Shown one piece after another: positions 6,097-63,681 of a stretch of 64,000 nucleotides of DNA. The notes beneath the pieces were generated by a model. That model did no database searches, was not told the origin of the DNA, and saw only the letters and a list, made by a program, of their open reading frames with translations. Position 1 is the stretch's first letter; the number at the start of each line of letters is the position of its first letter. The position numbers were made by a program, and so were the translations under genes. This DNA comes from Myxococcales bacterium (lineage in GTDB: Bacteria > Myxococcota > Myxococcia > Myxococcales > UBA5297), in the NCBI GenBank assembly GCA_049841135.1, contig JASGHK010000008.1:211272-275271 (forward strand), written 5' to 3'.

Positions 6097-9685
<3,589 letters not shown>

Positions 9686-27899: not shown

Positions 27900-30797
27900 C
27901 TACTGGCAGTAACCCGAGTTCATGCCGCCGGTGGTGCAGGTGCCGCTGGCGCAGTAGTTGCCCAGGCAGCAGCGCTGGGTCGTCGCGCCGCAGCTCTGGC
28001 ACTGGTTCTGGGCGCAGATGAAGCCGGTGCCGCACCAGGCACCGCCGGTGCCGGGGCAGCAGGCCTGTCCGGAGCCGCCGCAGGCGACGCACACCTGGTT
28101 GAAGTTCGAGGTCGTGTAGGCCTCGGTGCAGCCGTTGATGGGGCAACGGTCCTCGCCCAGGCCGCCGCAGGGATCGCCCTGGCTCTCGCAGCTGCCCTGG
28201 ACGCAGGCCCCCTCGCCGCCGGTGCAGGCCGCGCCGCTGGCGAGGCAGAGGCCGTCGCGGTCGCAGCACCCGCCCCCTTCGCAGGCGATGCCGTCGCAGC
28301 AGGGCTGCCCGGCTCCGCCGCAGGCCTGGCAACGGTCGCCGTTGTTGGCCGCCGGCGCGCAGACCGTGCCCGCCGCGGTGCAGAAGTCGCTGCCGCGCTG
28401 GCTGACGCAGCAGGCCTGGCCGAGCCCGCCGCAGGTGGTGTTGCCGGAGGTGCACCCCGTGGCGCCGCAGGTGCCGAAGGCGCCGGTGCAGGCGGCCCCC
28501 GAGGCCACGCAGACCGAGCCCGAGCAGCAGCTGGTGCCGCCGCAGGTGGCGTCCGGGCAGCAGGCCTTGCCGTCGGAGCCGCACTCGACGAACTGGCCGC
28601 TGGAGCAGATGAGCCCGGAGGCCGAGCCCGAGGCCCCGTCGGGGACGCAGGTGTTGCTGGCGGTGTCGACGCAACCGCCGCCCACGCAGGTCGGCGGGGT
28701 GCCCGGGCAGGGCGCCTGGAAGGGCCCGCCGCAGGACTCGCACGCGCCGCTGGCGCCGCACACCGCGCCGGTGCCGCAGGCCGCGCCGGGGGCGACACAG
28801 GCGCCGCCGGTGCAGCAGCCGCCGGTGCAGCTGTTGCCGGCGCAGCAGGCGTTGCCCACGACGCCGCAGGTCTTGCAGGTGCCGCCCTGGCAGGTGGTGC
28901 CCGCCGCGGTGCAGGTGCTGAGCAGGCAGCAGGGACCGTCCAGGCCGCCGCAGGTCCCGCAGGCGCCGTCGGTGCAGGTGGCGCCGCCGGTGCAGGTGCC
29001 GCCGGGGGCGATGCAGGTGCCATTGGTGACGGCGGTGGCTCCGACGCAGCAGCCGCCGGTCTCGCAGCCGTTGTTGGCGCAGCAGGCGCTGCCCGCCGTG
29101 CCGCAGGCCGCGCAGGTCCCCAGGGCGTTGCAGATCGCCCCGGTGTTGCAGGCCCGGCCGGAACAGCAGGGGCTGCCGGCGGCGCCGCAGGAGACGCAGG
29201 TGTTGTTGTTGCAGACGTTGCCCGTGCCGCAGGCGCCGCCCGCGCAGCAGGGCCCGCCCGCCGTTCCGCAGGCCGTGCAGGTGCCCCCGCTGCAGACGTT
29301 GCCGGCCGAGCAGGCGCCGCCCGCGCAGCAGGGCTGGGTGGCGCCGCCGCAGGCCTCGCAGGTGCCGTTGACGCAGCGGCCGCCGGCGGCGCAGGCGTTG
29401 TTGGCGCAGCAGCCCTCGCCGACCGCACCGCAGTGCGTGCAGGTGTTGAGGGCGGTGCAGGTGGAGCTGGCGGCGCAGGTGCGGCCGACCGCCACGCAGG
29501 TCTTGTTGGCGGGGTCGGTGGTGTTGCAGCAGCCGGTGTTGCAGGCGTCGCCGGCGCAGCAGGGCTGGCCGGGGCCGCCGCAGCCGGCGCAGGCGCCTCC
29601 CGCCAGGCAGAGATCGCCGTCGGAGCAGGCCGAGCCGACGTTGATGCAGCGGCCGTTGCCGTTCACGTCGCAGCAGCCGGCGGTGCAGGCGTCGCCCGGG
29701 CAGCAGACCTCGCCCGCGCCGCCGCAGTTCTGGCAGGTGCCGTTGCGGCAGGAGGTGCCGGCGGCGGTGCAGGTGTTGTTCGCGCAGCAGGCCGAGCCGG
29801 CCGTGCCGCAGGTGGCGCAGGTGCCCAGGGTGCACAGCGTGCTCGGGGCGGTGCAGACGGTGGGCGGCATCCCGCAGCAGGTCTCGCCCGTGCCGCCGCA
29901 GGTGCCGCAGGCACCGGCGGCGCAGGTGCCGCCGCTGGGGCAGGCGGAGCCGGAGGCGACGCAGGTGCCGCTGTAGCAGCAGCCGCCGGTCTCGCAGGTG
30001 TTGGCCGCGCAGCAGGCCTCGCCCGCGCCGCCGCAGTTGGCGCAGGTGCCGTTGCGGCAGACGAGGTCGGCCCCGGTGCAGGTGTTGCCGGCGCAGCAGG
30101 CGTCGCCGACCGAGCCGCAGACGACGCACAGGCCGGCGCGGCAGGTGGCGCCGGCGGCGGTGCAGGTGTTGCCCTCGCAGCAGGGCTCGCCGCCCGCGCC
30201 GCAGGCGGCGCACTGGCCGGTCGAGCCGCAGACGAGGCCCGTGCCGCACTCCTGCGCGCCGCCGGTGCAGCAGGCCTGGCCGGCGCCGCCGCAGGGCGGG
30301 GCCGCGCAGGTCCCGGCGGTGCAGACCTGGCCGCCGCCGCAGCTCTGGCCCTCGGCGAGGCAGGAGCCGCCCGAGCAGCAGGCGTTCCCGGTGCAGGTGT
30401 TGCCGCCGCAGCAGGTCTGGCCAGGCGCGCCGCAGGGGACGCACTGGCCGCTCGCGTTGCACAGGCCGCCGCCGGTGCAGACGTTGCCCGGACAGCAGAA
30501 CTGGCCGTTGGCGCCGCACTCGCCGGCGTCGTAGTCGATGGAGGCGTCGGGCGGGACGATCGGGTCGGCGTCCGGGAGGTCGACGACGGTCGCGTCGGGC
30601 GTCTCGACCACGCCGGTGTCGCCGGCCACCACGATCGCGGCGTCGCCCGGCAGCGTTCCGGTGTCGCCGGCCGTGACGATGCCGGTGTCGGAGGTGCTGC
30701 CCCCGCCGTCGGCGACGTAGGGCGCCACGGGCTCGGCGCAGCCAGCAGCCATCACCAGCGCGAGACAGGCTCGCGCCAGAAGCTTTCGCGTCTCCAT
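27900..30797 (-). CDS. Giant Cys/Gly-rich tandem-repeat lipoprotein of 965 aa with about 30 CGxxGQxCCxGNxC-type modules
   Basis: A GGGAGG ribosome-binding site lies upstream and the signal and lipobox are METRKLLARACLALVMAAGC. An acidic PDA/TG-rich linker precedes about 750 aa of roughly 25-aa modules such as CGAPGQTCCGGNTCTGNACCSGGSC and CGGAGEVCCPGDACTAGCC. The last module is ...CQSCGATTQRCCLGNYCASGTCTTGGMNSGYCQ. Confidence 0.8.
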   Translation of the reverse strand: METRKLLARACLALVMAAGCAEPVAPYVADGGGSTSDTGIVTAGDTGTLPGDAAIVVAGDTGVVETPDATVVDLPDADPIVPPDASIDYDAGECGANGQFCCPGNVCTGGGLCNASGQCVPCGAPGQTCCGGNTCTGNACCSGGSCLAEGQSCGGGQVCTAGTCAAPPCGGAGQACCTGGAQECGTGLVCGSTGQCAACGAGGEPCCEGNTCTAAGATCRAGLCVVCGSVGDACCAGNTCTGADLVCRNGTCANCGGAGEACCAANTCETGGCCYSGTCVASGSACPSGGTCAAGACGTCGGTGETCCGMPPTVCTAPSTLCTLGTCATCGTAGSACCANNTCTAAGTSCRNGTCQNCGGAGEVCCPGDACTAGCCDVNGNGRCINVGSACSDGDLCLAGGACAGCGGPGQPCCAGDACNTGCCNTTDPANKTCVAVGRTCAASSTCTALNTCTHCGAVGEGCCANNACAAGGRCVNGTCEACGGATQPCCAGGACSAGNVCSGGTCTACGTAGGPCCAGGACGTGNVCNNNTCVSCGAAGSPCCSGRACNTGAICNALGTCAACGTAGSACCANNGCETGGCCVGATAVTNGTCIAPGGTCTGGATCTDGACGTCGGLDGPCCLLSTCTAAGTTCQGGTCKTCGVVGNACCAGNSCTGGCCTGGACVAPGAACGTGAVCGASGACESCGGPFQAPCPGTPPTCVGGGCVDTASNTCVPDGASGSASGLICSSGQFVECGSDGKACCPDATCGGTSCCSGSVCVASGAACTGAFGTCGATGCTSGNTTCGGLGQACCVSQRGSDFCTAAGTVCAPAANNGDRCQACGGAGQPCCDGIACEGGGCCDRDGLCLASGAACTGGEGACVQGSCESQGDPCGGLGEDRCPINGCTEAYTTSNFNQVCVACGGSGQACCPGTGGAWCGTGFICAQNQCQSCGATTQRCCLGNYCASGTCTTGGMNSGYCQ

Positions 30798-30897
30798 TTT
30801 TCGGACCTCCCGAGGCTTGGTTCCTCGCTGCTCCGGGCCGGCAGTCCACGGAGCGGACGAAGGCGAGGATACCCCCGGGGCCGTCCCCGGCCTAACA

Positions 30898-31027
30898 AGG
30901 GCTTCGGGCTGCGGGCTTCGGGCTTCGGGTCAAGCCGCGGGTAGAGGTTCTCGAGGGCGTTGCCCGCGTTGTCCCCGGTCAGCTCGCCCGAAGTCCCGAA
31001 GTCCCGAAGTCCCGAAGCCCGAAGCCC
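30898..31027. repeat. REP-like palindromic intergenic repeat (GGCTTCGGG family) between the Cys-rich lipoprotein and the MVP-like gene
   Basis: The sequence reads gcttcgggctgcgggcttcgggcttcgggtcaagccgcggg ... cccgaagtcccgaagtcccgaagtcccgaagcccgaagccc. The two arms are inverted complements that could form a long hairpin. It shares the core with 11064..11150 and 63509..63681. Confidence 0.55.
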
Positions 31028-41289: not shown

Positions 41290-41642
41290 GCGAGCCTCCG
41301 CAGCAGTTCCGCGAGCTCGGCAACGTCGAGCCCCTCGATGCGAAGCCCGCGCGGCCCATGCACGACCAGGCGGCTCGGAACGGGAACAGCAGCGACGGGC
41401 TCGTCTTCCACGACGACTGGAGCGAGCAGCGCGCGTTCCCGCCTGCTCCACCGCCCCAGCGTCAGTGCCCCGAGCCCAAGCCGGTCCGCGGCTGCCTGGG
41501 CGCTCTCGCCCGTCGCCAGCAGGGCGCGATAGCACGCCACCGCTTCCTGTCGCAGTTCCTCAGGCAGGGGCCGCAGTCCGGACGCATGCCCGAACTGCTC
41601 CCGCTGCTGCCTGACCCGCTCCGCCCGTTGCTTCACGTCCAT
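41286..41642 (-). CDS. tnpA: IS66 Orf1 (TnpA) of copy 1
   Basis: 118 aa in the first position of the IS66 operon (MDVKQRAERVRQQREQFGHASGLRPLPEELRQEAVACYRALL...), with helix-turn-helix-like features. Confidence 0.8.
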   Translation of the reverse strand: MDVKQRAERVRQQREQFGHASGLRPLPEELRQEAVACYRALLATGESAQAAADRLGLGALTLGRWSRRERALLAPVVVEDEPVAAVPVPSRLVVHGPRGLRIEGLDVAELAELLRRLA

Positions 41643-41879
41643 CGCGCGTGCCTCCTTGGGAGTTCACGCGCGAATACCGCGGCCTGGCGAAGGCTACGAG
41701 ACGGGGACGGGCGAGGACGTACGATTCGTCCATCGATCGCGGGCGCCCCGTTGGGCCCGCTCCAGGACCTTACGGAGCAGGCTCGTGGGCGCCCAGCCCC
41801 CGTGGGGCGCTTCGTCGCCTGGGCGGGCAGGACCTCACGCCGGACGGCCCCTCCGCGCCGCGCTGCCCAGCTTTCCAAG

Positions 41880-42140
41880 GTGAGCTTGGACGGGCTGATC
41901 TCCGAGGGGAGCCTGCGCGCAGCCGTCCAGTTCCTGGTCCGGCTCGTCGAGACCGCCGGGGCGATCATCATCTTCGCGGGCGCCGCCACGGGCTTCGCCC
42001 GCTTCCTGCTGGTCGCCGCGCTGCGGCGCAACCCCTCGCTGTTCACGCCGGTCCGCCTCGACGTGGGGCGGTTCCTCGCCTTGGGGCTCGAGTTCCAGCT
42101 CGCCTCGGACCTGTTGCGCACGGCCGTGGCCCCTCCTTGA
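41880..42140 (+). pseudogene. DUF1622-like small membrane protein gene, C-terminally truncated by the tandem repeat array
   Basis: From GTG 41880 the sequence reads SLDGLISEGSLRAAVQFLVRLVETAGAIIIFAGAATGFARFLLVAALRRNPSLFTPVRLDVGRFLALGLEFQLASDLLRTAVAPP*. It matches the DUF1622 pattern (…GR.L.LGLEF.LAADI.RT…) but stops abruptly where the first repeat unit begins. Confidence 0.5.
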
Positions 42141-42662
42141 AAATCCGCCCCGCCGCGCCCGCCCGAGACCTGTCACACGCCGAGGACCTGTCCCACGTGG
42201 GACAGGTCTCTCCCTTTGGAAACTCGCCCCGCCGCGCCCGCCCGAGACCTGTCACACGCCGAGGACCTGTCCCACGTGTGCCAGGTCTCTCCCTCGGGAA
42301 ACTCGCCCCGCCGCGCTCGCCCGAGACCTGTCACACGCCGAGACCTGTCACACGCCGAGGACCTGTCACACGCCGAGGACCTGTCCCACGTGGGACAGGT
42401 CTCTCCCTCTGGAAATCGGAAATCCGCCCCGCCGCGCTCGCCCGAGACCTGCCACACGCCGAGGACCTGTCACACGTGTGGCAGGTCTCTCCCTCTGGAA
42501 ATCCGCCCCGCCGCGCTCGCCCGAGACCTGTCACACGCCGAGGACCTGTCACACGTGTGGCAGGTCTCTCCCTCTGGAAATCCGCCCCGCCGCGCTCGCC
42601 CGAGACCTGTCACACGCCGAGGACCTGTCACACGTGTGGCAGGTCTCTCCCTCTGGAAATCC
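42141..42662. repeat. Tandem array of about 79-bp units, 6.1 units on this side, each holding a CACGTG-centred near-perfect palindrome and 18-bp internal sub-repeats
   Basis: The consensus unit is GGAAATCCGCCCCGCCGCGCTCGCCCGAGACCTGTCACACGCCGAGGACCTGTCACACGTGTGGCAGGTCTCTCCCTCT. Units start at 42141, 42218, 42297 (115 bp, with two extra GACCTGTCACACGCCGAG copies), 42411 (86 bp), 42497, 42576 and 42655. The seventh unit is split by IS66 copy 2 after its first 8 bp. Confidence 0.9.
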
Positions 42663-42757
42663 GTACGTCCTCGCCCGTCCCCGTCTGGCGGAGGGCGCCA
42701 GGGGCGCGTATTCGCGCGCGCGTGCGAGGCCGGCGCCGCGCGCCGGCGGCGTAGTGG

Positions 42758-44269
42758 TCAGGGCTGGGGCACGGCGGCCGCGTGCTCGTGCGGCAGCGGC
42801 ATTGGCTGGTGCGTGAGGCGCGCGATGACCGCAGCCTTGAGGTAGGCGCGCGGGTCTACGCGGTGGAGCTTGCAGGTCTCCATCAGCGTGTACATCAGCG
42901 CCGCCACCTCAGCGCCGCGCTCGGATCGAGAGCCGTAGTGGTTCTTGCGCCCGAGCACCACGCCGCGCAGCGAGCGTTCGGCGAAGTTGTTGTCGAGCGG
43001 CACGAGCGGGTCAGCCAGGAAGACCGTCAGCCCCTTCCACTGGCCCTGCATGTACTTGATCGCCTCGGCCAGGCCGCTCGACGGCAGCACCATCGCGAGC
43101 GTCCGGTTTCCCCACCGCTCGATGTCCTCGATGACCTGGGTGGACTTCTCCGCGCGCAGACGGGCGCGCTGAGCCAGGCCCTCGGCGCCATTGGAAGCGA
43201 CCTCGCCCTCGATTCGATAGAGCTCTGCGATCAGTCCCAGGATCTCCGAGACCGGCTGCGGAAAGTTCTTCTCGACCTCCAGGAATTTTCGGCGCGCATG
43301 CGGCCAGCAAGAAGCGAGCCGGAAGCTGGGGCCGTCACGCGACTGCGCCAAGCTCGAGTAGACGCTGTAGCCGTCAGCCATCACCGTGCCGCGATAGCCG
43401 GCCAGCAGCTCGCGGGCCACCTGCGCGCCGCGCGAGGGGTCGATGTGGTGGTAGACCGCGCGGCTCGAGCAGATGGTCCAGTCGTACCACCACTCGCTGC
43501 CCTTCTCGCCGCGCGCAGCCATCTTGCGCCAGCGCGTCTCGTCGGCGTGGACCACGGCGTCTGTCAGCACCAGCGCCCGCAGCCGCGGTCGTAGCGGCTC
43601 GAGGACCGCCGCCAGCGCCTCGAGGTAGTCCCACAGCGTCTGGGAGTCGGTCACCAGTCCGTCGCGCTTCATGGCGCGGCACTGCCGCTCCAGCGGCTGG
43701 TGGTCGGTGTACTTGTCCACGGCGATGCCGATGGCGAAGTCGATGGAGTAGCGCGCCCCCTCGAAGAGCTTGAGCGGGCCGGGCGCGGTGACGATGCACT
43801 CGTTGCAGGAGCAGCGGTACTTCTGCCGCAGGTGCTTGTGCAGCTCGAAGCGGCGGTGGACGACAGTGATCTCCTCGGAGGGCTCAAACTCGCCCTTCAT
43901 CGGATTGAGCGTCCCGCCGCACTTTTCACACTGGAGCTGGTCCTCGCCGAGCGCCCAGATGCGCTCGATGGACGGCAGGGCCGGCTGCTCCCGGCGGCCG
44001 TGACCCGTCTGCGGCTTTTTCGCCGCCGAGGTCGGCTCGCCGCGGCGCTCCGACGACGAGGGCGCGAAGAGCTTCTCGTTCTGGAGCGCGAGCTGCCGCT
44101 GCAGCTTCTCGAGCTCGAGCTGCAGCGCCTTGGTGTCGCCGCCCTTGAGCGCGGTCAGCTCGGCGAGCACCTCGGCGATGCGCCGGTGCAGGTGCCGGTT
44201 CTCGGCCTCGAGGAGTATCGCCGCTTGCCGCAGCACCTCGATGTTCTTCTCGCGCTCAAGGGAGACCAA
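42758..44269 (-). CDS. tnpC: IS66-family transposase (TnpC) of copy 2
   Basis: The 503-aa product is identical to that of 39355..40866. Confidence 0.9.
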   Translation of the reverse strand: MVSLEREKNIEVLRQAAILLEAENRHLHRRIAEVLAELTALKGGDTKALQLELEKLQRQLALQNEKLFAPSSSERRGEPTSAAKKPQTGHGRREQPALPSIERIWALGEDQLQCEKCGGTLNPMKGEFEPSEEITVVHRRFELHKHLRQKYRCSCNECIVTAPGPLKLFEGARYSIDFAIGIAVDKYTDHQPLERQCRAMKRDGLVTDSQTLWDYLEALAAVLEPLRPRLRALVLTDAVVHADETRWRKMAARGEKGSEWWYDWTICSSRAVYHHIDPSRGAQVARELLAGYRGTVMADGYSVYSSLAQSRDGPSFRLASCWPHARRKFLEVEKNFPQPVSEILGLIAELYRIEGEVASNGAEGLAQRARLRAEKSTQVIEDIERWGNRTLAMVLPSSGLAEAIKYMQGQWKGLTVFLADPLVPLDNNFAERSLRGVVLGRKNHYGSRSERGAEVAALMYTLMETCKLHRVDPRAYLKAAVIARLTHQPMPLPHEHAAAVPQP

Positions 44270-44302
44270 AGCGCGACCAAGCTAACGCATGAGGGGCGAA
44301 GG

Positions 44303-44692
44303 TCAACCGCTCGCCGGGGAAGCTTTCGCCTGCGCCGCGAGCGTGAACGGCGCCGGGCTCAGCGCGACCCTGCCGACCAGCTCGCTGCCCTCCAGGAAGA
44401 GCGCCAGCTCGCTCGTCGTCATCCGCATCACCCCGTCTGGCCCCAGCCGTTTCCACGGAGCAGCGAAGAGCTGGTTCTCGAGCCGCTTGGCGAAGATGCA
44501 CAGGCCGGTGCCGTCCCAAAAGAGCACCTTTGCCCGCCGTCGGTTCTTGCTCACGAACAGGAACATGTCGCCCGAAAGCGCGTCGCGCTTGAGCTGCAGC
44601 GAGACGAGCGCGTGCAGGCTGTCGAACGACTTGCGCATGTCCGTCGGCGTTCCGCAGGCGAACACCGAGATTTGCCGAGTCGAGCCGATCAC
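44303..44692 (-). CDS. tnpB: IS66 Orf2 (TnpB) of copy 2
   Basis: It is identical in position and sequence to 40900..41289, offset by 3403 bp. Confidence 0.85.
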   Translation of the reverse strand: MIGSTRQISVFACGTPTDMRKSFDSLHALVSLQLKRDALSGDMFLFVSKNRRRAKVLFWDGTGLCIFAKRLENQLFAAPWKRLGPDGVMRMTTSELALFLEGSELVGRVALSPAPFTLAAQAKASPASG

Positions 44693-45045
44693 GCGAGCCT
44701 CCGCAGCAGTTCCGCGAGCTCGGCAACGTCGAGCCCCTCGATGCGAAGCCCGCGCGGCCCATGCACGACCAGGCGGCTCGGAACGGGAACAGCAGCGACG
44801 GGCTCGTCTTCCACGACGACTGGAGCGAGCAGCGCGCGTTCCCGCCTGCTCCACCGCCCCAGCGTCAGTGCCCCGAGCCCAAGCCGGTCCGCGGCTGCCT
44901 GGGCGCTCTCGCCCGTCGCCAGCAGGGCGCGATAGCACGCCACCGCTTCCTGTCGCAGTTCCTCAGGCAGGGGCCGCAGTCCGGACGCATGCCCGAACTG
45001 CTCCCGCTGCTGCCTGACCCGCTCCGCCCGTTGCTTCACGTCCAT
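44689..45045 (-). CDS. tnpA: IS66 Orf1 (TnpA) of copy 2
   Basis: It is identical to 41286..41642. Confidence 0.8.
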   Translation of the reverse strand: MDVKQRAERVRQQREQFGHASGLRPLPEELRQEAVACYRALLATGESAQAAADRLGLGALTLGRWSRRERALLAPVVVEDEPVAAVPVPSRLVVHGPRGLRIEGLDVAELAELLRRLA

Positions 45046-45125
45046 CGCGCGTGCCTCCTTGGGAGTTCACGCGCGAATACCGCGGCCTGGCGAAGGCTAC
45101 GAGACGGGGACGGGCGAGGACGTAC

Positions 45126-45208
45126 GGAAATCCGCCCCGCCGCGCTCGCCCGAGACCTGTCACACGCCGAGGACCTGGCACACGTGTGCCAGGTCCCTCC
45201 CTCTGGAA
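45126..45208. repeat. Distal remainder of the tandem-array unit interrupted by IS66 copy 2
   Basis: The sequence reads ggaaatccgccccgccgcgctcgcccgagacctgtcacacgccgaggacctggcacacgtgtgccaggtccctccctctggaa. It continues the unit that starts at 42655. Confidence 0.85.
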
Positions 45209-45223
45209 TTCTGGCGGCCGCAC

Positions 45224-47245
45224 TCAGCGCTCCAGCGGGGCGCGCTCGAGCACCAGCGTCGTCCACTGCTCCGTCAACGAGAGCCCCGGCACGGTGACCG
45301 AGCCGTCGGCCGCGGCCTGGACCTCTCCGCTGGCTTCGCCGAACGACCAGCGGACGCGCTCGCCAGGCAGACAGCGGAAGGACTGCGTGCGGCGCGGGGT
45401 GACGTCGACCTGGAGCGGAAGAGACCCATCGAGCCGGTCTCCGGTGGTCGGGTAGCCGGGGCGCGGGGACGGGCCGCCGGGGCCGTCCTCGGCGCGGAGC
45501 GGGAGCTCGAGCCGTTCCGGCGTGTCCACGATCTTCGTGGGATCCCAGCGCGCCGAACGGTTGATGCCCCCGGCGATCTCGCCCGACCACCCGGTGTCGC
45601 CGGCAACGGAGACCTTGCCCGCGTATCCGTTCTCGGCGTCCCAACTGCGCTTGCCGTTGCCGCTGCCGTCGCCGGGGTCGCGATCGATGGAGCAGCGAGT
45701 GAAGGCCGGGAACGCCTGGTCGCGGCGCAGGTCCTTGCCGGGATCCCAGGTTCCGAACCAATCGCCCAGGACCGGGTCCGGACGCGTGTGCCCGCCTTCA
45801 TCCCATAGCGCGAGGTGGCCGATGTGCTCCTGCTGCAAGGTCTGAAGGAACGAGTGGGCCGTGAGCGGGCTGGGCTTGACCGCTGCGCTGAAGAGGATGG
45901 TCGTGTCGTCCTTGCCGTGCCAGACCGCGAGGAACTGGTCCCGGGCCTCGGCCTGCGTCGAGAGCACCCGGGTGAGATCGAGCCAATCCCAGATGCCGAC
46001 GCCGTCGCCGCCTTCCAGGCCTTGCTCCGGCGTTCCCCAGAGTTCGGAGAGGGTCTTCATCCGGCTCGGCCGGTGATGCCTGGGGACGGTCTGCGCGGCG
46101 GTGGCCTTCACGAAGCTGAAGTGGCGCGCGTAGAGCAGACCGATCGCGAGCGCCCCGGCGCCGCCCATCGAGCCACCGTTGAGCCAGACGCGCTCTGGAT
46201 CCGCTCCGGGGTACGTGCGCAGGACGTAGTCGAGCAGGTGCATCACCCGCCGGGCCGTGTACGGCTGGACGCGGCCACCCTCCGGGCCGGCGCCCGGAAG
46301 CAGCTCCGAGTAGCCCCACCAGTAGGTGTTCATCGGGTCGTGCGGGTAGAGCCGGAACTCCTTGCTGCTCCCGACGGCGGGCCCGGGGGCGTCGGCGTCG
46401 AAGGCGTGCAGCCGCACCTGCACCGGCATCGGCGCCTCCGCGCTCGCTGCGGAGGGGACCACGAGCTCGGCCTCGAAGCTGCGGCCGGCGTAGCCGGGGC
46501 TGTCGAGGAAAGCGTCGGTCTTCTGGCGCAGCGTGACGACGCTCCAGCCGTTCCCCGCCTGGCGGCGGACCACCACTGGGTCTTCCGGATGGATCGTGTC
46601 GTCCACCACCAGCTCGAGGCTGGCCTCGGCCTGGGCAAGGCCATCGCTGGCGGTCACCTGGACCCGATAGGAGCGCCCGCCCTGGATGAAGGTGGGCCGA
46701 AAGGTGATCCGTCTCGACTGCTCGTCCCATCGCGCCCCAGGCGGCAGGCCGGCGACCCACACTCGCAGCGGGTCCTGGTCGAAGTCGGAGAGGTCCAGTC
46801 CGATGACGCTGGTCTCCTCCTCCGCGATCTCCACCCGCGCGGGAGCACGGATGACCGGAACCGAGTTGCCGACCTCGATCGAAATCGCCGGCGAGCCCAC
46901 CGCCGCGTCACCGCCCAGGGCCAGCTCGTGCGTTCCCCGGCGCAGAGCCGGCAGATCCACCACGAGCTCGTCCGGCGAGAGCCGGTGCGAAGGACAAGCC
47001 ACCCCGTCGAGGAGGACACCCGTTCCGGCTCCGAAGCCGTCTCCGTCCAGGCTCACCGCCCCAGGCACCCCGCCCGGGACGGCGGGCGGGCGCACATTGC
47101 GGAGCTGGGCCGCCGACGCCGGGTCGACAGGCCCCGCTGCGCCGGCGTCAGTCGCCGAGCCGCCAGGCGCATGCCCGCGCCCATGGCACGCGACCATCAG
47201 TAGCGACGAGAGCAGGACCGGCCATGACCCCGAACGGACGACCAT
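45224..47245 (-). CDS. Secreted protein with Ig-like/IPT N-terminal domains and an alpha/beta-hydrolase (esterase-like) C-terminal domain
   Basis: The signal peptide is MVVRSGSWPVLLSSLLMVAC. A serine-hydrolase elbow WLNGGSMGGAGA (GxSxG) is present, and the N-terminal half is rich in beta strands. Confidence 0.65.
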   Translation of the reverse strand: MVVRSGSWPVLLSSLLMVACHGRGHAPGGSATDAGAAGPVDPASAAQLRNVRPPAVPGGVPGAVSLDGDGFGAGTGVLLDGVACPSHRLSPDELVVDLPALRRGTHELALGGDAAVGSPAISIEVGNSVPVIRAPARVEIAEEETSVIGLDLSDFDQDPLRVWVAGLPPGARWDEQSRRITFRPTFIQGGRSYRVQVTASDGLAQAEASLELVVDDTIHPEDPVVVRRQAGNGWSVVTLRQKTDAFLDSPGYAGRSFEAELVVPSAASAEAPMPVQVRLHAFDADAPGPAVGSSKEFRLYPHDPMNTYWWGYSELLPGAGPEGGRVQPYTARRVMHLLDYVLRTYPGADPERVWLNGGSMGGAGALAIGLLYARHFSFVKATAAQTVPRHHRPSRMKTLSELWGTPEQGLEGGDGVGIWDWLDLTRVLSTQAEARDQFLAVWHGKDDTTILFSAAVKPSPLTAHSFLQTLQQEHIGHLALWDEGGHTRPDPVLGDWFGTWDPGKDLRRDQAFPAFTRCSIDRDPGDGSGNGKRSWDAENGYAGKVSVAGDTGWSGEIAGGINRSARWDPTKIVDTPERLELPLRAEDGPGGPSPRPGYPTTGDRLDGSLPLQVDVTPRRTQSFRCLPGERVRWSFGEASGEVQAAADGSVTVPGLSLTEQWTTLVLERAPLER

Positions 47246-58974: not shown

Positions 58975-61878
58975 ATGACCAGACTCTCGGTGCTCCAAGC
59001 GGCGTTTGCCCTGTCGCTTTCGCTGTCCGTCGCCGGTTGCACCGGTGCGGGCGAGTCGCCCAACGTGCTCAGCGCACCTCTCCCCGCCGCGGCGGCGCAG
59101 CCCGTCGGCACCCGGTCCTTCGCGCTCGCCGCCAACGGCGAGGCGTGTACCGCCGGCGCCGACTGCACCAGCGACTTCTGCGTGGACGGTGTCTGCTGCA
59201 ACGAAGCCTGCGGCGGCGGCGCCACCGACGACTGCCAGGCCTGCAGCGTCGCCGCGGGCGCTGCGGCCGACGGCACCTGCAGCGCGCGGGCGGCGACCAC
59301 CGTGTGCCGGGCCTCGGCGGGCGACTGCGACCTCGCCGAGACCTGCGACGGCACCGCCGTGCTCTGCCCGGCCGACCAGTTCCAGCCCGCGAGCCACGAG
59401 TGCCGGGGCGCGCAGGCCAGCGACCTGTGCGACCTGCCCGAGACCTGCTCCGGCACCAGCGCGGCCTGCCCGGCCGACCAGGTGGTGAGCGCCGGCACCT
59501 CCTGCCGCCCCGCCGCCGACCTCTGCGACCTCCCCGAGGCCTGCGACGGGACCTCCAAGGCCTGCCCCGCCGACCAGGTGACGAGCGCCGGCACCTCCTG
59601 CCGCCCCGCCGCCGACGTCTGCGACCTCCCCGAGGCCTGCGACGGAACCGCCAAGGCCTGCCCCGCGGATCGGTTCCAGCCTGCGAGCCACGTGTGCCGG
59701 AGCGCACAGGCCGGCGACCTGTGCGACCAGGCCGAGACCTGCACCGGCACCAGCGCGGCCTGCCCGGCCGACCTGGTGAAGAGCGCCGGCGTCTCCTGCC
59801 GCGCCGCCGCCGGCCTCTGCAATCTCCCCGAGGCCTGCGACGGGACCTCCAAGGCCTGCCCCGCCGACGTGCTGCAGGCCTCCGGCTTCGAGTGCCGCGC
59901 GGCCCTGGCGACCAACCTGTGCGACCTGGCCGAGGTCTGCGACGGAGCCAGCGCCGCCTGCCCTGCCGACCTGGTGAAGCCCGCCAATACCGTCTGCCGC
60001 GCCGCCGCCGGCGACTGCGACGTCGCCGAGAAGTGCGACGGCACCGCCAAGGCCTGCCCGGTCGAGAAGTTCGTGGCCTCGACCGTCACCTGCCGCCCCT
60101 CGTACGGGGACTGCGACGTGGGGGAGAACTGCCCCGGCAACGCCGCCGACTGCCCGGCCGACAAGATCAAGGTCAAGGGCAGCGTCTGCCGCGCGGCCCT
60201 GCCCACCGAGCCGTGCGACGCGCCCGAGACCTGCGACGGCGTGGGCATCACCTGCCCGGCGGATCTCGTGAAGCCCGCCAACACCGTCTGCCGCGCCGCG
60301 GTGACCGGCGGCTGCGACGTGGCCGAGAACTGCGACGGCACCGCCAAGACCTGCCCCACCGACGCCTTCGCCACGGTCAACACCCTCTGCCGCCCCGCCG
60401 CCGGCGACTGCGACGTGCCCGAGGTCTGCACCGGGACCACCGCCACCTGCCCGACCCCCGACGTCAAGAAGCCGTCGGGCACCGAGTGCCGGGCCTCGCA
60501 GGGCCCGTGCGACCCGGCGGAGGCGTGCACCGGGAGCTCCGCCGCCTGCCCGGCGGACAAGCTCTCGCCGGGGAGCACCGTCTGCCACCCGGCCAACGGC
60601 GCCTGCGACGCGGTGGAGAACTGCACCGGCACCTCGGCGGCCTGCCCCGCCGACCTGCCCAAGGCCCAGGGGCTCCCCTGCCGCGCCGCCGCGGGCCCGT
60701 GCGACCTCGTCGAGACCTGCGACGGCGTGGTCCGGGAGTGCCCCGCCGACGTCCTCCGCTCCGCGGGCTTCGAGTGCCGGGCGGCCTTGGGCATCTGCGA
60801 CGTCGCCGAGCAGTGCACCGGCGCCTCGGCGCAGTGCCCGGCCAACGTGGTCGAAGCCCAGGGCAAACCCTGCCGTCCCAAGGCCGGCGACTGCGACTTC
60901 GCCGAGGAGTGCGACGGCGTCAGCGGCGCCTGCCCGGCCGACCGGATGGTGGCCCTGGGCACCGAGTGCCGCGCGGCCGACGGCGACTGCGACTTCGCCG
61001 AGTACTGCACCGGCACCAGCAACGAATGCCCGGCCGATGCGGTGAAGAACAGCACCATGGTGTGCCGCGTCGCGGCCGGCCCGTGCGACCTGCCCGACCA
61101 CTGCGACGGCCAGGTCAAGACCTGCCCCGCCGACGCCCTGGCCGGCCCCGAGGTCGTCTGCCGCGCCGCCGGCGGCGACTGCGACCTGGCCGAGAGCTGC
61201 ACCGGCACCTCCGCCGACTGCCCGACCGACGAGGTCAAGCCGTCGACGGTCGAGTGCCGTGCCTCCTCCGGCGTGTGCGACCTCGCCGAGTCGTGCGACG
61301 GCAAGTCGGCGCGCTGCCCGTCCAACGCCCTCAAGCCCACCGGCCAAGGCTGCCCCGGCGACGGCACCTGCCAGCAGGGCCACTGCGATCACCTGCCCGT
61401 CTCCACCGACGACGAGTACAGCACCCTGGCCGGCGAGGCCCTCGTGGTCGACGCGGCGCAGGGCCTGCTCTCCAACGACGCCGACGCGGACAGCGACGCG
61501 CTCAGCGTGGTGCTGGAGACCGAGCCCGGGCACGGCCGCCTGAGCCTGAAGCAGGACGGCTCCTTCCGCTACGAGCCGGACCACGCCTTCCTGGGCACGG
61601 AGACCTTCACCTACCGGGCGAGCGACGGCTTCGGCAAGGGCGCGGTGGCGACGGTGACCATCACCGTGAAGCCTCAGCCGCTGGACGCCAGCGTCGAGCC
61701 GGTCGACGCCGCGATGCCGGTGGACGCCTCCGCTCCGGACGCGGCGATCGCGGGCGCGGACGCGGGCGAGCCGCGCTTCTCCGGCGGCTGCAGCTGCGCG
61801 AGCGCGGCGGCGGGCCCGGCGATGGGCATCCTCCTGCTGGCCTTCGCCCTGCCGATGATCGGCCGGCGCCGGAAGTAA
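58975..61878 (+). CDS. Giant Cys-rich tandem-repeat lipoprotein of 967 aa: about 45 copies of a 20-aa CRxAxGxCDxxExCxGxSxxCPAD module, an Ig/cadherin-like domain and a MYXO-CTERM tail
   Basis: A GAGGGAAG ribosome-binding site lies upstream and the signal and lipobox are MTRLSVLQAAFALSLSLSVAGC. The repeats include CRASAGDCDLAETCDGTAVLCPADQF, CRPAADLCDLPEACDGTSKACPADQV and similar. A beta-sandwich domain follows (…LSNDADADSDALSVVLETEPGHGRLSLKQDGSFRYEP…TFTYRASDG…). The tail ends FSGGCSCASAAAGPAMGILLLAFALPMIGRRRK. Confidence 0.85.
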   Translation: MTRLSVLQAAFALSLSLSVAGCTGAGESPNVLSAPLPAAAAQPVGTRSFALAANGEACTAGADCTSDFCVDGVCCNEACGGGATDDCQACSVAAGAAADGTCSARAATTVCRASAGDCDLAETCDGTAVLCPADQFQPASHECRGAQASDLCDLPETCSGTSAACPADQVVSAGTSCRPAADLCDLPEACDGTSKACPADQVTSAGTSCRPAADVCDLPEACDGTAKACPADRFQPASHVCRSAQAGDLCDQAETCTGTSAACPADLVKSAGVSCRAAAGLCNLPEACDGTSKACPADVLQASGFECRAALATNLCDLAEVCDGASAACPADLVKPANTVCRAAAGDCDVAEKCDGTAKACPVEKFVASTVTCRPSYGDCDVGENCPGNAADCPADKIKVKGSVCRAALPTEPCDAPETCDGVGITCPADLVKPANTVCRAAVTGGCDVAENCDGTAKTCPTDAFATVNTLCRPAAGDCDVPEVCTGTTATCPTPDVKKPSGTECRASQGPCDPAEACTGSSAACPADKLSPGSTVCHPANGACDAVENCTGTSAACPADLPKAQGLPCRAAAGPCDLVETCDGVVRECPADVLRSAGFECRAALGICDVAEQCTGASAQCPANVVEAQGKPCRPKAGDCDFAEECDGVSGACPADRMVALGTECRAADGDCDFAEYCTGTSNECPADAVKNSTMVCRVAAGPCDLPDHCDGQVKTCPADALAGPEVVCRAAGGDCDLAESCTGTSADCPTDEVKPSTVECRASSGVCDLAESCDGKSARCPSNALKPTGQGCPGDGTCQQGHCDHLPVSTDDEYSTLAGEALVVDAAQGLLSNDADADSDALSVVLETEPGHGRLSLKQDGSFRYEPDHAFLGTETFTYRASDGFGKGAVATVTITVKPQPLDASVEPVDAAMPVDASAPDAAIAGADAGEPRFSGGCSCASAAAGPAMGILLLAFALPMIGRRRK

Positions 61879-61936: not shown

Positions 61937-63487
61937 TCAGGTCCCCTTCTTCACGCACCGCTCGCAGAGCGACCGCGGCCGCTCGAGCCCGCCGCCGTCG
62001 AGCGTCGCGCCGGGAGCACCACAGGGCTCGCACCGGCCCTCCAGCGCCGCGTCGATGAGCACCAGCCTCTTCGCGTCCCCGGTCGCCTGGCCCTCGAGCT
62101 GCTCGAGCTCCAGCTGGCGCTGCCGGCGCGAAGGCCCAAGCCGTCGGTTGATCTCCTCGAAGGCCCGCTCGACCGACCTCTCCGAGCCGGGCAGGGGGAA
62201 CAGCGCGTCGGGCTCGCACCACGACGACGGCCCGCAAAGGCCGGTGACCGCGTCGATGGACATCGAGAAGCGCCCGTCCTCGACGTCGTAGGACCAGGGC
62301 GGGACCCCGGCCTGCCGGAGCTGGAGCTCGAACTGCTCGGCGAGCGCGGTGTCGATGGAGAGCGACGTCACCCCCGCGGCCGTGCAGGTCGCCATCCAGT
62401 GGGAGTCGTCCCGGGGCTCGACTTGCGCGCCGCGGCCCGTCCGCTTGTAGCCGAGCAGCACCAGCCGAAGGGAACGGTCCCGGCAGTCCTGCGCGATCTG
62501 CTCCAGGTCCTCGGGGTTGGCGACCGGCGTCCCGAGCACCACGTGGATCGCCGGAAGCCAGACGCTCTGGCTGGCGCGTGGATGGTTGCGCACCCGGTCG
62601 CTGACGAGCTTGACCTCGTCCGAAGCCTGGACAGAGTAGGCCCAGGCCACCCTGCTCCACTCGACGTCCTTGGCGCGGTGCTGCTCGTCCATCCACTCCA
62701 GCCTGCGAGTGGTGAAGGCCGCGCGCATGCCCGCCTTCTGGATGGCCGCGAGGATGGCGTGGAAGTCGGGATGCTCGGTCGGCTCGCCGCCGCCGAGGAC
62801 CACCTCGAAGACCTGCGCCTCCTTGAGCCTCTCGACGATCGGAAGGATGGCCGAGAGCGGAGCGTGCCGGCCGTCGGGGCGCGAGTCCTGGTAGCAGTAC
62901 GCACAGCCGGCCTCGCAGCGCTCGGTGATCTTCAGGTCCACGAGCTCCGGCCAGGTCGAGCGGAACGGGAGGACGTGCGGGTCGGCCGCCCGTGCGAAGG
63001 AGAAGCGGGCCTTGGTCCCCCGGTAGCTCTCCATCACGGTCCAGAAGCCGAGCGGATCGCGCCGGACGCGAGCGTCGCCGAAGTCGGCGGGATCGAGCCC
63101 CTGGTCGAAGTCGCTCTCCGGGTGCGGAAAGCCGTCGCCGCCGCCGAGGATGACGACGCCCTCCTTCATGGCCCAGCGCGCGATCTCCGCCAGCAGCTCC
63201 GGCGGGCCCGACCACTGCGTTTGATGGTTGACCCGCCCTTCGCCGACCGGCCCACCCAGCAACCCGGTCAGCTCGCCCGCCAGCCCCGCTCCATCCAGCT
63301 GCAGGCGCAGGTACGGCCGCTTGGCTTCCGGCGAGGCGAGCAGGAAGTGCTCGTCGTGGTACTCGTGCCCCTCCACCAGGTTCTCGTCCTTGCGGCCGGG
63401 CAGGAAGATGACGCTGTGCGCCGAGGACGAGTTGGTGGCGAACCCGAGCCGCAGGCTATGGAGGAAGAGGTGGGGAGGGCCGGACAT
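61937..63487 (-). CDS. Radical SAM protein with a long N-terminal extension and a Cys-rich C-terminus
   Basis: The radical SAM motif CEAGCAYCYQ (CxxxCxxC) sits about 230 aa from the N-terminus, with a GGE-like VLGGGEPT motif downstream. The C-terminus reads CEPCGAPGATLDGGGLERPRSLCERCVKKG. The start is uncertain, at ATG 63487 or nearby. Confidence 0.65.
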   Translation of the reverse strand: MSGPPHLFLHSLRLGFATNSSSAHSVIFLPGRKDENLVEGHEYHDEHFLLASPEAKRPYLRLQLDGAGLAGELTGLLGGPVGEGRVNHQTQWSGPPELLAEIARWAMKEGVVILGGGDGFPHPESDFDQGLDPADFGDARVRRDPLGFWTVMESYRGTKARFSFARAADPHVLPFRSTWPELVDLKITERCEAGCAYCYQDSRPDGRHAPLSAILPIVERLKEAQVFEVVLGGGEPTEHPDFHAILAAIQKAGMRAAFTTRRLEWMDEQHRAKDVEWSRVAWAYSVQASDEVKLVSDRVRNHPRASQSVWLPAIHVVLGTPVANPEDLEQIAQDCRDRSLRLVLLGYKRTGRGAQVEPRDDSHWMATCTAAGVTSLSIDTALAEQFELQLRQAGVPPWSYDVEDGRFSMSIDAVTGLCGPSSWCEPDALFPLPGSERSVERAFEEINRRLGPSRRQRQLELEQLEGQATGDAKRLVLIDAALEGRCEPCGAPGATLDGGGLERPRSLCERCVKKGT

Positions 63488-63508
63488 GGTTCTACCCATA
63501 TGATCGTT

Positions 63509-63681
63509 GCGGGCCGCAGCGTGACGGCCGGACGGACGCTTCGGGACGGGCACTGGCGGCTTGACCCGAAGCCCGAAGCCCTACTTCGGGTGCGGGCCGC
63601 GGCGTGACGGCCGGAGGGACGCTGCGGGACCGGCACTGGCGGCTTGACCCGAGGCCCGAAGCCCGCAGCCCGAAGCCCCTC
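63509..63681. repeat. Two tandem, roughly 80-bp copies of a REP-like element (GGCTTCGGG family) with the core ggcggcttgacccgaagcccgaagccc
   Basis: The region reads gcgggccgcagcgtgacggccggacggacgcttcgggacgggcactggcggcttgacccgaagcccgaagccc followed by a second, more diverged copy. The core is the reverse complement of the one at 30921-30939. Confidence 0.55.

Follow-up and report, generated by a model that had tools for sequence, protein, structure and literature searches.

A pair of probably independent IS66-family insertions at a palindromic tandem array in an uncultured myxobacterium

Introduction

Works by Han et al. 2001 and Gourbeyre et al. 2010 are said to be the references for the IS66 family of insertion sequences, including IS66 of Agrobacterium and IS679 of Escherichia coli. 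The element presented here resembles both in its gene order (tnpA-tnpB-tnpC, with tnpA a candidate), the overlap between this candidate and tnpB, the TnpB_IS66 and DDE_Tnp_IS66 domains, the 8-bp target-site duplication, the length of about 2.5 kb, and the inverted repeats that begin with GTA. The usual inverted-repeat start in the family is GTAAGCG, compared to GTACG in the present element. The 8-bp target duplication of IS66 is cited in PMC6778807, and the transposition mechanism of the family is still poorly characterised (PMC12898284).

In Agrobacterium tumefaciens pAt15955, recombination between direct IS66 copies resulted in a deletion, giving the Δ270 derivative (PMC6778807). As in the locus studied here, the segment is bordered by IS66 copies in direct orientation, neither of which shares its 8-bp duplication with the other, and recombination in pAt15955 leaves one IS with mismatched flanks. 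The deletion was observed there; in our case the interval measures 940 bp and the deletion is a prediction.

Families of REP, BIME and REPIN sequences comprise hundreds of dispersed copies and have an associated RAYT transposase. Among IS elements, IS1397 and ISKpn1 target REP/BIME palindromes, a subject reportedly treated by Tobes and Pareja 2006. The array described below is similar to BIME-2/REP arrays of enterobacteria in its tandem palindromic units located between convergent genes and in the presence of an inserted IS. It also resembles MIRU/VNTR minisatellites, which are intergenic tandem repeats of 50-100 bp variable in copy number and internal length, with an apparent origin in slippage or unequal exchange common to both. 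Tandem units with an inverted repeat and directly repeated short motifs are further known from sopC of plasmid F and from other repeated centromere or iteron arrays. REPINs of Pseudomonas (PMC3116915) represent an additional comparison system.

Here we describe a locus in a metagenome-assembled genome (MAG; locus tags QM765_) of a Myxococcales bacterium, in a window of 64,000 nucleotides (the whole stretch of DNA analysed, to which all positions refer). The structure is probably the result of two independent simple insertions by a new IS66-family member, both in intergenic surroundings that had decayed beforehand and that include a locally amplified hairpin minisatellite.

Results and discussion

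Anatomy of the paired elements and family assignment

Features of the locus are listed in Table 1. The initial annotation had proposed two near-identical IS66 copies, each with its own 8-bp target-site duplication, and its boundaries proved exact to the base, with both duplications, GATTCGTC and GGAAATCC, perfect on both sides. The copies are in direct orientation, spaced by 940 bp and 99.84% identical. Four mismatches separate copy 1 from copy 2 (40233 A/G, 40705 T/C, 40915 C/G and 41269 C/T), all of them synonymous, and the TnpC protein is identical; the probability that four of four random substitutions are all silent is ~0.01-0.03.

Table 1. Coordinates of the features identified at the locus
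Feature	Position	Strand	Remarks
Body of 235-aa membrane-protein gene, distantly DUF4337-like	38555..39259	-	reconstruction; cut from start codon by copy 1
Copy 1 target-site duplication GATTCGTC	left 39252..39259, right 41723..41730		
IS66-family copy 1, 2463 bp	39260..41722	-	boundaries, 24/24 terminal inverted repeat, Pfam TnpB_IS66 + DDE_Tnp_IS66
Copy 1 tnpC, DDE transposase, 503 aa	39355..40866	-	PF03050; copy 2 counterpart 42758-44269
Copy 1 tnpB, 130 aa, GTG start	40900..41292	-	PF05717 E=7e-27; copy 2 counterpart 44303-44695
Copy 1 tnpA, 118 aa	41286..41642	-	ORF; copy 2 counterpart 44689-45045
ATG (41733-41731) and codons 2-4 of membrane-protein gene	41723..41733	-	stranded beyond copy 1
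DUF1622 gene, truncated after residue 84 of ~124	41886..42140	+	TGA stop from first array unit
Minisatellite units 1-6 and first 9 bases of unit 7	42138..42662		units 79 bp; unit 3 = 121 bp
17/18-bp sub-repeat (GAG(G)ACCTGTCACACGCC) expanded to four copies inside unit 3	42321..42390		
7-bp tandem duplication, GGAAATC followed by GGAAATCC, unit 3/4 border	42411..42425		same register as copy 2 target duplication
Copy 2 target-site duplication GGAAATCC	left 42655..42662, right 45126..45133		left: first bases of array unit
IS66-family copy 2, 2463 bp	42663..45125	-	4 synonymous differences vs copy 1
Unit 7 remainder (with duplicated GGAAATCC) and degenerate start of further unit (TGGAATTC)	45126..45211		
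Esterase/depolymerase-like gene, 673 aa, convergent	45224..47245	-	ORF; weak Pfam Esterase, weak NCBIfam

The first 24 of 24 bases of the terminal inverted repeats match (GTACGTCCTCGCCCGTCCCCGTCT), starting with GTACG, and beyond this point the match becomes patchy, extending to ~57 bp at 79%. All three genes are intact in both copies, and the tnpA stop overlaps the GTG start of tnpB as GTGA. In Pfam, TnpC matches PF03050 (E=1.2e-74) together with zf-IS66 and DDE_Tnp_IS66_C, while in NCBIfam it matches NF033517 (transpos_IS66) with 338 bits (cut-off 180), and TnpB matches NF033819 (IS66_TnpB) with 90.7 bits (cut-off 50). TnpA differs from the family in having no match above threshold to any Pfam family model and none to NCBIfam models; its sole hit is a sub-threshold HTH_23 (Pfam, E=0.008), although as the first ORF of the operon it occupies the expected place. 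TnpC, TnpB, the 8-bp duplication and the inverted repeats all fit membership in the IS66 family. The sequence is new: comparison with IS66 members carried on plasmids gave no more than scattered stretches of 70-76% DNA identity, and the element represents a previously undescribed member.

A third copy was not found within the 64-kb window. In the source MAG, an identical TnpA is recorded under four accessions on three contigs and an identical TnpC has a third accession, revealing at least two additional copies with the same IS proteins. Outside this sample, the closest transposase (P0210) shares at least 90% amino acid identity and belongs to an element 88% identical in DNA; the next nearest foreign one (P0090) is 84% identical in amino acids. 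Because the extra copies in the MAG encode identical proteins, the observations fit a recent expansion of this element in the Myxococcales genome, consistent with the recent burst that had been suggested from the few SNPs.

Probable independence of the two insertions

The distance from start to start of array units across copy 2 is 2550 bp, equal to 2463 + 8 + 79, and the array is therefore perfectly in phase once copy 2 and one duplication are removed. This locates copy 2 inside a 79-bp unit, as had been proposed. When copy 1 is taken out, a 235-aa membrane-protein gene that the initial annotation had missed regains its start. Homologues extend over the restored N-terminus (P0002 is 61% identical across 100% of the reconstructed query), which includes a conserved R-x-EL-x-AT motif upstream of an internal Met, from which the NCBI annotation begins a protein of just 207 aa (P0001). 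On the strength of these alignments, the gene interrupted by copy 1 can be regarded as real. Copy 1 ends 416 bp before the array, in agreement with the estimate of about 400 bp, and the DUF1622 gene described as its neighbour is indeed close by, but the insertion itself lies within codons 2-4 of the divergent membrane-protein gene.

The data support separate insertions of copies 1 and 2: their 8-bp duplications differ, and removal of each IS restores a separately recognisable feature. The restored array phase and the restored ORF, taken together, are not explicable by tandem or assembly duplication. The outer flanks of the pair differ as well (GATTCGTC versus GGAAATCC), whereas a composite transposon would be bracketed by a target duplication of its own or would occur at more than one site. 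Since the outer flanks are unlike and the duplications belong to the individual IS copies, the two-IS structure was assembled on the spot and was not brought in whole. Mobilisation of the interval as a composite transposon, with a gene fragment and repeats as cargo, could be put forward as pure conjecture.

As the source is a MAG, it might be asked if cells having an IS at site 1 only and others having it at site 2 only were joined in a single consensus, given that reads overlapping in the 940-bp unique segment could link haplotypes. This is very unlikely. The junctions of both copies are clean and their duplications perfect, four SNPs keep the copies apart and they have not been collapsed, and the 1.65 Mb contig suggests long reads, which would normally span 6 kb. 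Even in a chimera of this kind, both insertions would remain real population events.

In the scenario of two simple insertions, a recently multiplied element would have inserted twice, 940 bp apart and in the same orientation. Copy 1 hit codons 2-4 of the membrane-protein gene, detaching its start codon and promoter, and copy 2 the most AT-rich octamer (GGAAATCC) of one array unit.

The truncated DUF1622 gene and the 79-bp array

Loss of the DUF1622 3' end at the array border, noticed previously, is borne out by the Pfam match (PF07784), limited to profile positions 1-52 of 78, and by homologues of 124 aa, which align over residues 1-83 only. In tblastn searches of the whole window, the lost C-terminus was not recovered, and neither was the 81-aa partner that is conserved downstream of DUF1622. 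On the other side, the stop codon of the esterase-like gene is located 12 nt beyond the array.

The array is comprised of seven units of 79 bp, one of them extended to 121 bp, between convergent genes. In each unit a 13-mer is present three times, twice in direct and once in inverted orientation, and a pair of these copies makes up a 24-bp palindrome centred on CACGTG. Allowing up to two mismatches, the 13-mer GACCTGTCACACG has 24 matches in the window (expectation 1.9), all but one of them inside the array. No other copy of the unit is present in the 59 kb of flanking DNA within the window. The array is non-coding: as 79 mod 3 = 1, an ORF running along it reads successive units in each of the three frames.

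Relatives of the array were sought in several collections. The degenerate palindrome gave 22 single chance matches in a set of one genome per species, with nothing shared beyond the palindrome. An exact 26-mer was absent from viral and metagenome contigs, and comparison with plasmids, phages and Rfam produced no match. A looser motif of two 13-mers disclosed 14 metagenome loci, all of them unrelated 18- or 21-bp repeats, mostly coding; the rejected candidates include L034 and an array beside an enoyl-reductase-like ORF (L035). When translated as an ORF and compared with 1.84 billion proteins, the array matched only P0335, a spurious hit to a low-G+C satellite-like repeat ORF. Derivation of the unit from the lost DUF1622 3' end was also rejected, as no frame is similar.

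These results separate the array from the described systems. In contrast to REP, BIME and REPIN families, it is confined to a single locus in the window and has no relative in the collections searched; a RAYT (Y1 transposase) gene was not seen among the window ORFs scanned. The inserted IS, which is of another family than IS1397 and ISKpn1, occupies the spacer that separates palindromes and not a hairpin loop. MIRUs occur at many loci per genome and frequently include short ORFs in phase with flanking genes, whereas the present array was seen at one locus and is out of frame (79 bp). Similarity to sopC concerns form only, the context here being chromosomal with no partition or replication genes seen nearby.

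A functional role in cis was considered, according to which the array would act as a bidirectional hairpin terminator, an mRNA stabiliser, or a binding array for a dimeric protein (sopC/parS-like or operator-like). The position between convergent genes would suit such a role, the most perfect palindrome (unit 7) lying 24 nt beyond the point where the esterase-like reading frame stops. Predicted RNA folds are stable on the plus strand (z ~ -2.8), and the three 13-mer copies per unit resemble iterated protein-binding sites. In addition, two of the 12 palindrome pairs exhibit compensatory changes on both sides (U-A/U-G/G-C and A-U/C-G). However, 33 of 500 shuffles reach the observed covariation score and the units are not independent, so that constraint on the palindrome is only weakly suggested, and hairpin-templated repair can keep palindromes symmetric without selection. 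Hairpins are not followed by a U-tract or T-run, and a consensus terminator scan of 38000-46000 returned zero sites. Partition, replication or cognate regulator genes were not seen in the part of the window scanned. Together with the lack of an Rfam match and of conservation in any other genome searched, these observations make a cis-acting function unlikely.

In our reading, the array is a minisatellite specific to this lineage. Its most probable origin is a piece of 3' intergenic DNA with a hairpin, amplified locally when slippage or unequal exchange took place at the GGAA(A/T)TC short repeat that bounds every unit. Amplification would have accompanied or followed the deletion by which DUF1622 lost its last 40 codons together with the downstream partner gene. 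The closest loci with homologues of the membrane protein and of DUF1622 (L037, L040 and L042) are not syntenic with the window, and an empty-site relative was not found; for this reason, the order of deletion, amplification and insertions is an inferred one.

Clustering of insertions and target choice

Genome G+C content is 72%, and both target octamers have four G+C or fewer, a property of 13.9% of octamers in the IS-free window. Assuming ~5 copies in a genome of ~10 Mb, the probability of two insertions within 1 kb under uniform targeting is ~2e-3, and some targeting or local hopping is therefore likely. Insertions may have been tolerated at a locus already non-functional, the element may prefer relatively AT-rich octamers, which are rare in this genome, or both could have contributed to the clustering.

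Alternatively, one copy might be a direct daughter of the other, pasted into a nearby site. The distance of 940 bp, the shared orientation and the 99.84% identity would be explained in this way, as would a proximity improbable under uniform targeting, and one IS66-family member is reported to transpose while the donor copy stays behind (PMC12898284). On the other hand, copies with identical proteins on other contigs could equally be donors, and exclusively synonymous differences would be expected of slightly different transposition-competent lineages more than of neutral decay following a hop from next door, an argument that with n=4 weighs weakly against a local hop. We consider direct descent possible, although doubtful.

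A further alternative assumes that the IS66 transposase is drawn to the array hairpins or to the GGAAATCC spacer, with repeated insertion there and an excision footprint left behind. The 7-bp duplication at 42411-42425 corresponds to two target duplications minus one base, in another unit but in the register of copy 2, and a random 7-bp duplication would fall in that register in ~2 of 79 cases. The outer borders of the array are likewise located in this segment, the two target octamers are AT-rich by the standards of the genome, and targeting of REP/BIME palindromes is known for other IS families. Nevertheless, copy 1 is outside the array, and GATTCGTC shares just the G......C ends with GGAAATCC. 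Mimicry of the array unit by the IS ends was examined and rejected (similarity not significant, P>0.28). Slippage in an unstable repeat would by itself account for a duplication of 7 bp.

Among metagenome contigs, related IS copies (L038, L044-L048) have heterogeneous flanks, without arrays or matching duplications, which speaks against attraction to the array; these contigs are short, maybe chimeric, and probably represent collapsed short-read assemblies, hence they are uninformative on target preference. The 7-bp duplication hints at target reuse or an excision footprint. Attraction of the transposase to the array is improbable on balance, and it is quite improbable that the array is a recurrent landing pad in which the duplication is a scar, left when the transposase cut out an earlier insertion at the homologous octamer and the ends were joined. 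The preferred reading remains that of two simple insertions in a decayed region.

Recombination potential and significance

Homologous recombination between the two copies would take out one IS along with the DUF1622 fragment and all array units but one of the seven. Array deletion by this route had been predicted in the initial annotation, and pAt15955 provides a precedent, but the loss would not include the entire array. By analogy, a deletion of this kind might occur in the future; the IS pair is a foreseeable hotspot for the loss of 3.4 kb and may also complicate assembly.

Overall, the locus follows standard IS behaviour, and what might go beyond routine annotation is the orphan palindromic minisatellite and the possible footprint. 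It adds a new and apparently active member to the IS66 family, from an uncultured myxobacterium, and it illustrates cleanly how IS copies can cluster where a locus has decayed: one gene has lost its start and one repeat array is cut in two. Should further copies of the element also reside in such units, this would reveal a target preference in the IS66 family. If true, the landing pad and the scar would represent the first sequence evidence of structure-guided targeting and footprinted excision for this family.

Two copies of an IS66-family element

Direct reading of positions 38400-46400, together with repeat detection, bore out all coordinates of the initial annotation, which had described two near-identical IS copies around a palindromic tandem array. 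Scripted comparison delimits two 2463-bp segments in direct orientation with 99.84% identity, mismatched at 4 positions, and no third copy in the window. Their inverted repeats start with 24 identical bases (GTACGTCCTCGCCCGTCCCCGTCT) and continue patchily to about 57 bases.

Positions of the features described, in window coordinates
Feature	Position	Strand	Sequence or remark
IS copy 1	39260-41722
IS copy 2	42663-45125
Target duplication, copy 1	39252-39259 + 41723-41730		GATTCGTC
Target duplication, copy 2	42655-42662 + 45126-45133		GGAAATCC
Mismatches between copies	40233, 40705, 40915, 41269		positions in copy 1; in copy 2, +3403
Membrane-protein gene body	38555-39259	-
Restored start codon (ATG)	41733-41731	-
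DUF1622 ORF	41886-42140	+
Palindromic array	42138-42662 + 45126-45211		split by copy 2
Outer array borders	42138; 45204		TGAAAATCC; TGGAATTC
Border of units 3 and 4	42411-42425		GGAAATC-GGAAATCC, 7-bp tandem duplication
Esterase-like gene	45224-47245	-
Tandem repeats	28818-30220		81-84 bp units
Vault-protein homologue	30752-33547	-	931 aa
WGR and WD40 protein	34452-36146	+	564 aa
Tandem repeats	59325-60456		96/294-bp units
tRNA-Gly(CCC) call (ARAGORN)	61953-62051	-	99 nt; probably a false positive
Short tandem repeat	63508-63664		83-bp unit x1.9, 93% identity

Each copy carries three ORFs of 118, 130 and 503 aa on the minus strand; the stop codon of the first and the GTG start codon of the second overlap in GTGA. 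The 130-aa product matches TnpB_IS66 (Pfam, E=7e-27) and the 503-aa product DDE_Tnp_IS66 (E=1e-74), as well as the zinc finger and the C-terminal motif of IS66; the NCBIfam equivalog models IS66_TnpB and transpos_IS66 score well over their cut-offs. The sole match of the 118-aa protein is a sub-threshold helix-turn-helix. Because these domain matches are combined with a target duplication of 8 bp, the IS66 value (PMC6778807), the element is assigned to the IS66 family, whose defining features it shows. It is a previously unknown member of this family and behaves as the family is known to. The nearest transposases outside its own genome are the metagenome protein P0210 (at least 90% identity) and P0090 (84%). 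The element encoding P0210 (locus L038) is 88% identical to the window IS in DNA, and IS66 members on plasmids match in DNA only in short patches of 70-76%.

Exact cluster-member look-up returned the identical TnpC under three accessions, two being copies 1 and 2, and the identical TnpA under four accessions, spread over three contigs; two transposase fragments came up as well. At least four IS copies with identical encoded proteins are thus present in the genome, which is expected of a recent expansion and consistent with the recent burst proposed initially. Copies in the MAG lie near proteins MGC4114802-4804 and MGC4117604-7606, with a fragment at MGC4122456. All four differences between copies 1 and 2 are synonymous, so that the three proteins are identical in both. 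Of all single substitutions possible in the element, 23% would be synonymous and 8% would fall outside coding sequence; four random changes would all be silent with a probability of about 0.01 (0.025 if only transitions are considered). With n=4, the synonymous pattern is a hint that weakly favours ancestry in copies that differed slightly and could still transpose, as against neutral decay following a hop from one neighbour to the other.

Independent insertions and an interrupted gene

Deletion of each IS with one duplication restores the array phase for copy 2 and an ORF for copy 1, in agreement with the earlier view that the insertions were independent. Array unit starts on either side of copy 2 lie 2550 bp apart, equal to 2463 + 8 + 79, and removal of copy 2 with one duplication therefore gives the exact repeat phase. 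For copy 1, in silico joining of 39259 to 41731 produces a 235-aa ORF. The closest non-self homologue of this protein, P0002, shows 61% identity at 100% coverage. In an alignment of 12 homologues, a conserved R-x-EL-x-AT-x-x-x-A-L motif precedes the internal Met taken as the start by NCBI. The disrupted gene is QM765_47730 (protein 100% identical), on a 1.65-Mb contig of a Myxococcales MAG; one source gives one homologue, P0060, the label DUF4337. Since the restored N-terminus is shared with homologues, copy 1 occupies codons 2-4 of a real membrane-protein gene, cutting off its start codon and promoter. The initial annotation had placed copy 1 next to the DUF1622 gene and had missed this interruption. 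The IS genes and the decapitated gene run in the same direction, and read-through from the IS giving an N-terminally shortened membrane protein is conceivable. The sequence is that of a MAG, and its consensus could, with low probability, join two sub-populations with one insertion each; both insertions would be real all the same.

Truncation of the DUF1622 gene at the array border

The claim that the DUF1622 gene has lost its 3' end at the array border was substantiated. The ORF matches profile positions 1-52 of 78 (Pfam), and alignment with homologues of about 124 aa is confined to residues 1-83, the last nucleotide being 42134. After LLRTAVAP, homologues continue with SFEEIGKLAAVAAIRT, and the window has a P and a stop codon from the first array unit. 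By tblastn, the missing 40 residues are absent from the entire window, as is a conserved 81-aa gene found downstream of DUF1622 in the related loci L040 and L042. Because both are missing, the array border marks a deletion or rearrangement breakpoint. In both relatives the hydrophobic 81-aa ORF (6375-6620 in each) overlaps and follows DUF1622, and the arrangement suggests that the two form a two-gene unit. The convergent 673-aa esterase-like gene is probably intact, since it has its own stop codon, 12 nt short of the array.

Structure and origin of the palindromic array

The array comprises seven units, six of 79 bp and one, unit 3, of 121 bp, the surplus consisting of two additional 17/18-bp sub-repeats and a 7-bp duplication. 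Units are laid out as GGAAATCC, a G+C-rich stretch, GAGACCTGTCACACG, CC, GAG, the palindrome GACCTGTCACAC/GTGTGGCAGGTC, and TCTCCCTCT. The 13-mers number 23 in the array and 1 elsewhere in the window (up to 2 mismatches; chance expectation 1.9). A unit length of 79 bp is not divisible by 3, so that one ORF crosses the array in all three frames, and the array is therefore non-coding.

Units 1-3 and 4-7 form two sub-types. Palindrome pairs are changed on both sides in 2 of 12 cases (T-A/T-G/G-C and A-T/C-G), with unit 2 intermediate. Because 33 of 500 shuffles reach the covariation score and units are not independent of one another, this makes a weak case that the palindrome may be under constraint. 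The minimum-energy RNA fold is an alternative 15-bp helix of the first 13-mer with the right arm, for which no covariation across units was found. A scan of 38000-46000 for intrinsic terminators was empty, the hairpins lack a T-run after them, and Rfam gave no match to the array.

No relatives of the array were found among one genome per species, in viral contigs, in metagenome contigs (exact 26-mer and a looser two-motif pattern), or in plasmids or phages, and no solo unit occurs elsewhere in the window. A search of the translated array against 1.84 billion proteins gave a single match, which was spurious. REP, BIME and REPIN families consist of dispersed copies, whereas the array is a single locus within the window; on these grounds the term that suits it best is locus-specific minisatellite, an orphan with palindromic units.

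Both outer borders fall in the same short segment that delimits all units, the pattern expected if two short direct repeats, spaced by 79 bp, underwent illegitimate exchange and so started the tandem duplication. The palindrome closest to perfect is the one adjoining the stop of the esterase-like gene, and from this we infer that the proto-unit was the 3' hairpin region of that gene. We likewise infer the order of events (deletion, amplification, insertions), since none of the homologous loci compared offered a syntenic empty site.

The window holds other repeats. Two long tandem arrays have periods that are multiples of 3 and are apparently coding; consensus units of the one at 59325-60456 seem to encode Cys-rich repeats of the C-D-L-P-E-x-C-D-G type, and the region of 58.9-61.9 kb is without a clean single ORF, with 2 stop codons in the translated frame. 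The 83-bp repeat lies where two predicted ORFs meet, and the tRNA call falls at the 3' terminus of a high-GC3 ORF (61937-63580). Elsewhere in the window, one protein of this myxobacterial MAG has a Major Vault Protein shoulder and vault repeats (Pfam PF11978, E=8e-29, PF17795, PF17796), and another has both a WGR domain and a WD40 beta-propeller.

Target choice and clustering of insertions

Both target octamers contain 4 G+C, a count of 4 or fewer being found in only 13.9% of octamers of the IS-free window; with two sites, this suggests that the IS may prefer AT-richer octamers. The duplication at the border of units 3 and 4 amounts to the copy 2 target octamer twice with one base lost, and lies in another unit in the register of that octamer; the chance that a random 7-bp duplication takes this register, judged post hoc, is about 2/79. 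An earlier IS insertion and excision may have left it as a scar, or it may have come from slippage in an unstable repeat. Recurrent, structure-guided IS66 targeting of the array, leaving an excision footprint, we regard as quite improbable. A similarity test detected no resemblance between the IS ends and the array unit, and related elements in short metagenome contigs, with heterogeneous flanks and no matching duplications, are uninformative on targeting.

Two insertions less than 1 kb apart would arise under uniform targeting with a probability of about 2e-3 (assuming ~5 copies and a ~10-Mb genome). Because such a pair is improbable, the clustering must owe something to tolerance of hits in a locus already dead, to a local hop or to regional preference.

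Another retrieved locus, L039 (606-1090; same junction in L043), retains 365 bp from the end of an 89%-identical IS66 relative. A 12-bp repeat of its own tip (GCGAGGACGTAC) follows the tip, and beyond this come two direct repeats of 24 bp, likewise spaced by 79 bp, around a CACGTG-centred palindrome. These repeats are without sequence similarity to the window array and lie directly upstream of what may be the N-terminus of an IS91-like zinc-binding transposase.

Consequences for the locus

Outer flanks of the two copies differ, and the structure was therefore not brought in as a composite transposon; the cargo between the copies has no evident value. As long, nearly identical direct repeats, the pair forms a standard substrate for RecA-dependent deletion. 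Recombination would leave a single IS between GATTCGTC and GGAAATCC; the 3403 bp lost would take with them the start codon of the membrane-protein gene, the DUF1622 fragment and six units of the array. The same deletion outcome has been documented for IS66 in Agrobacterium (PMC6778807).
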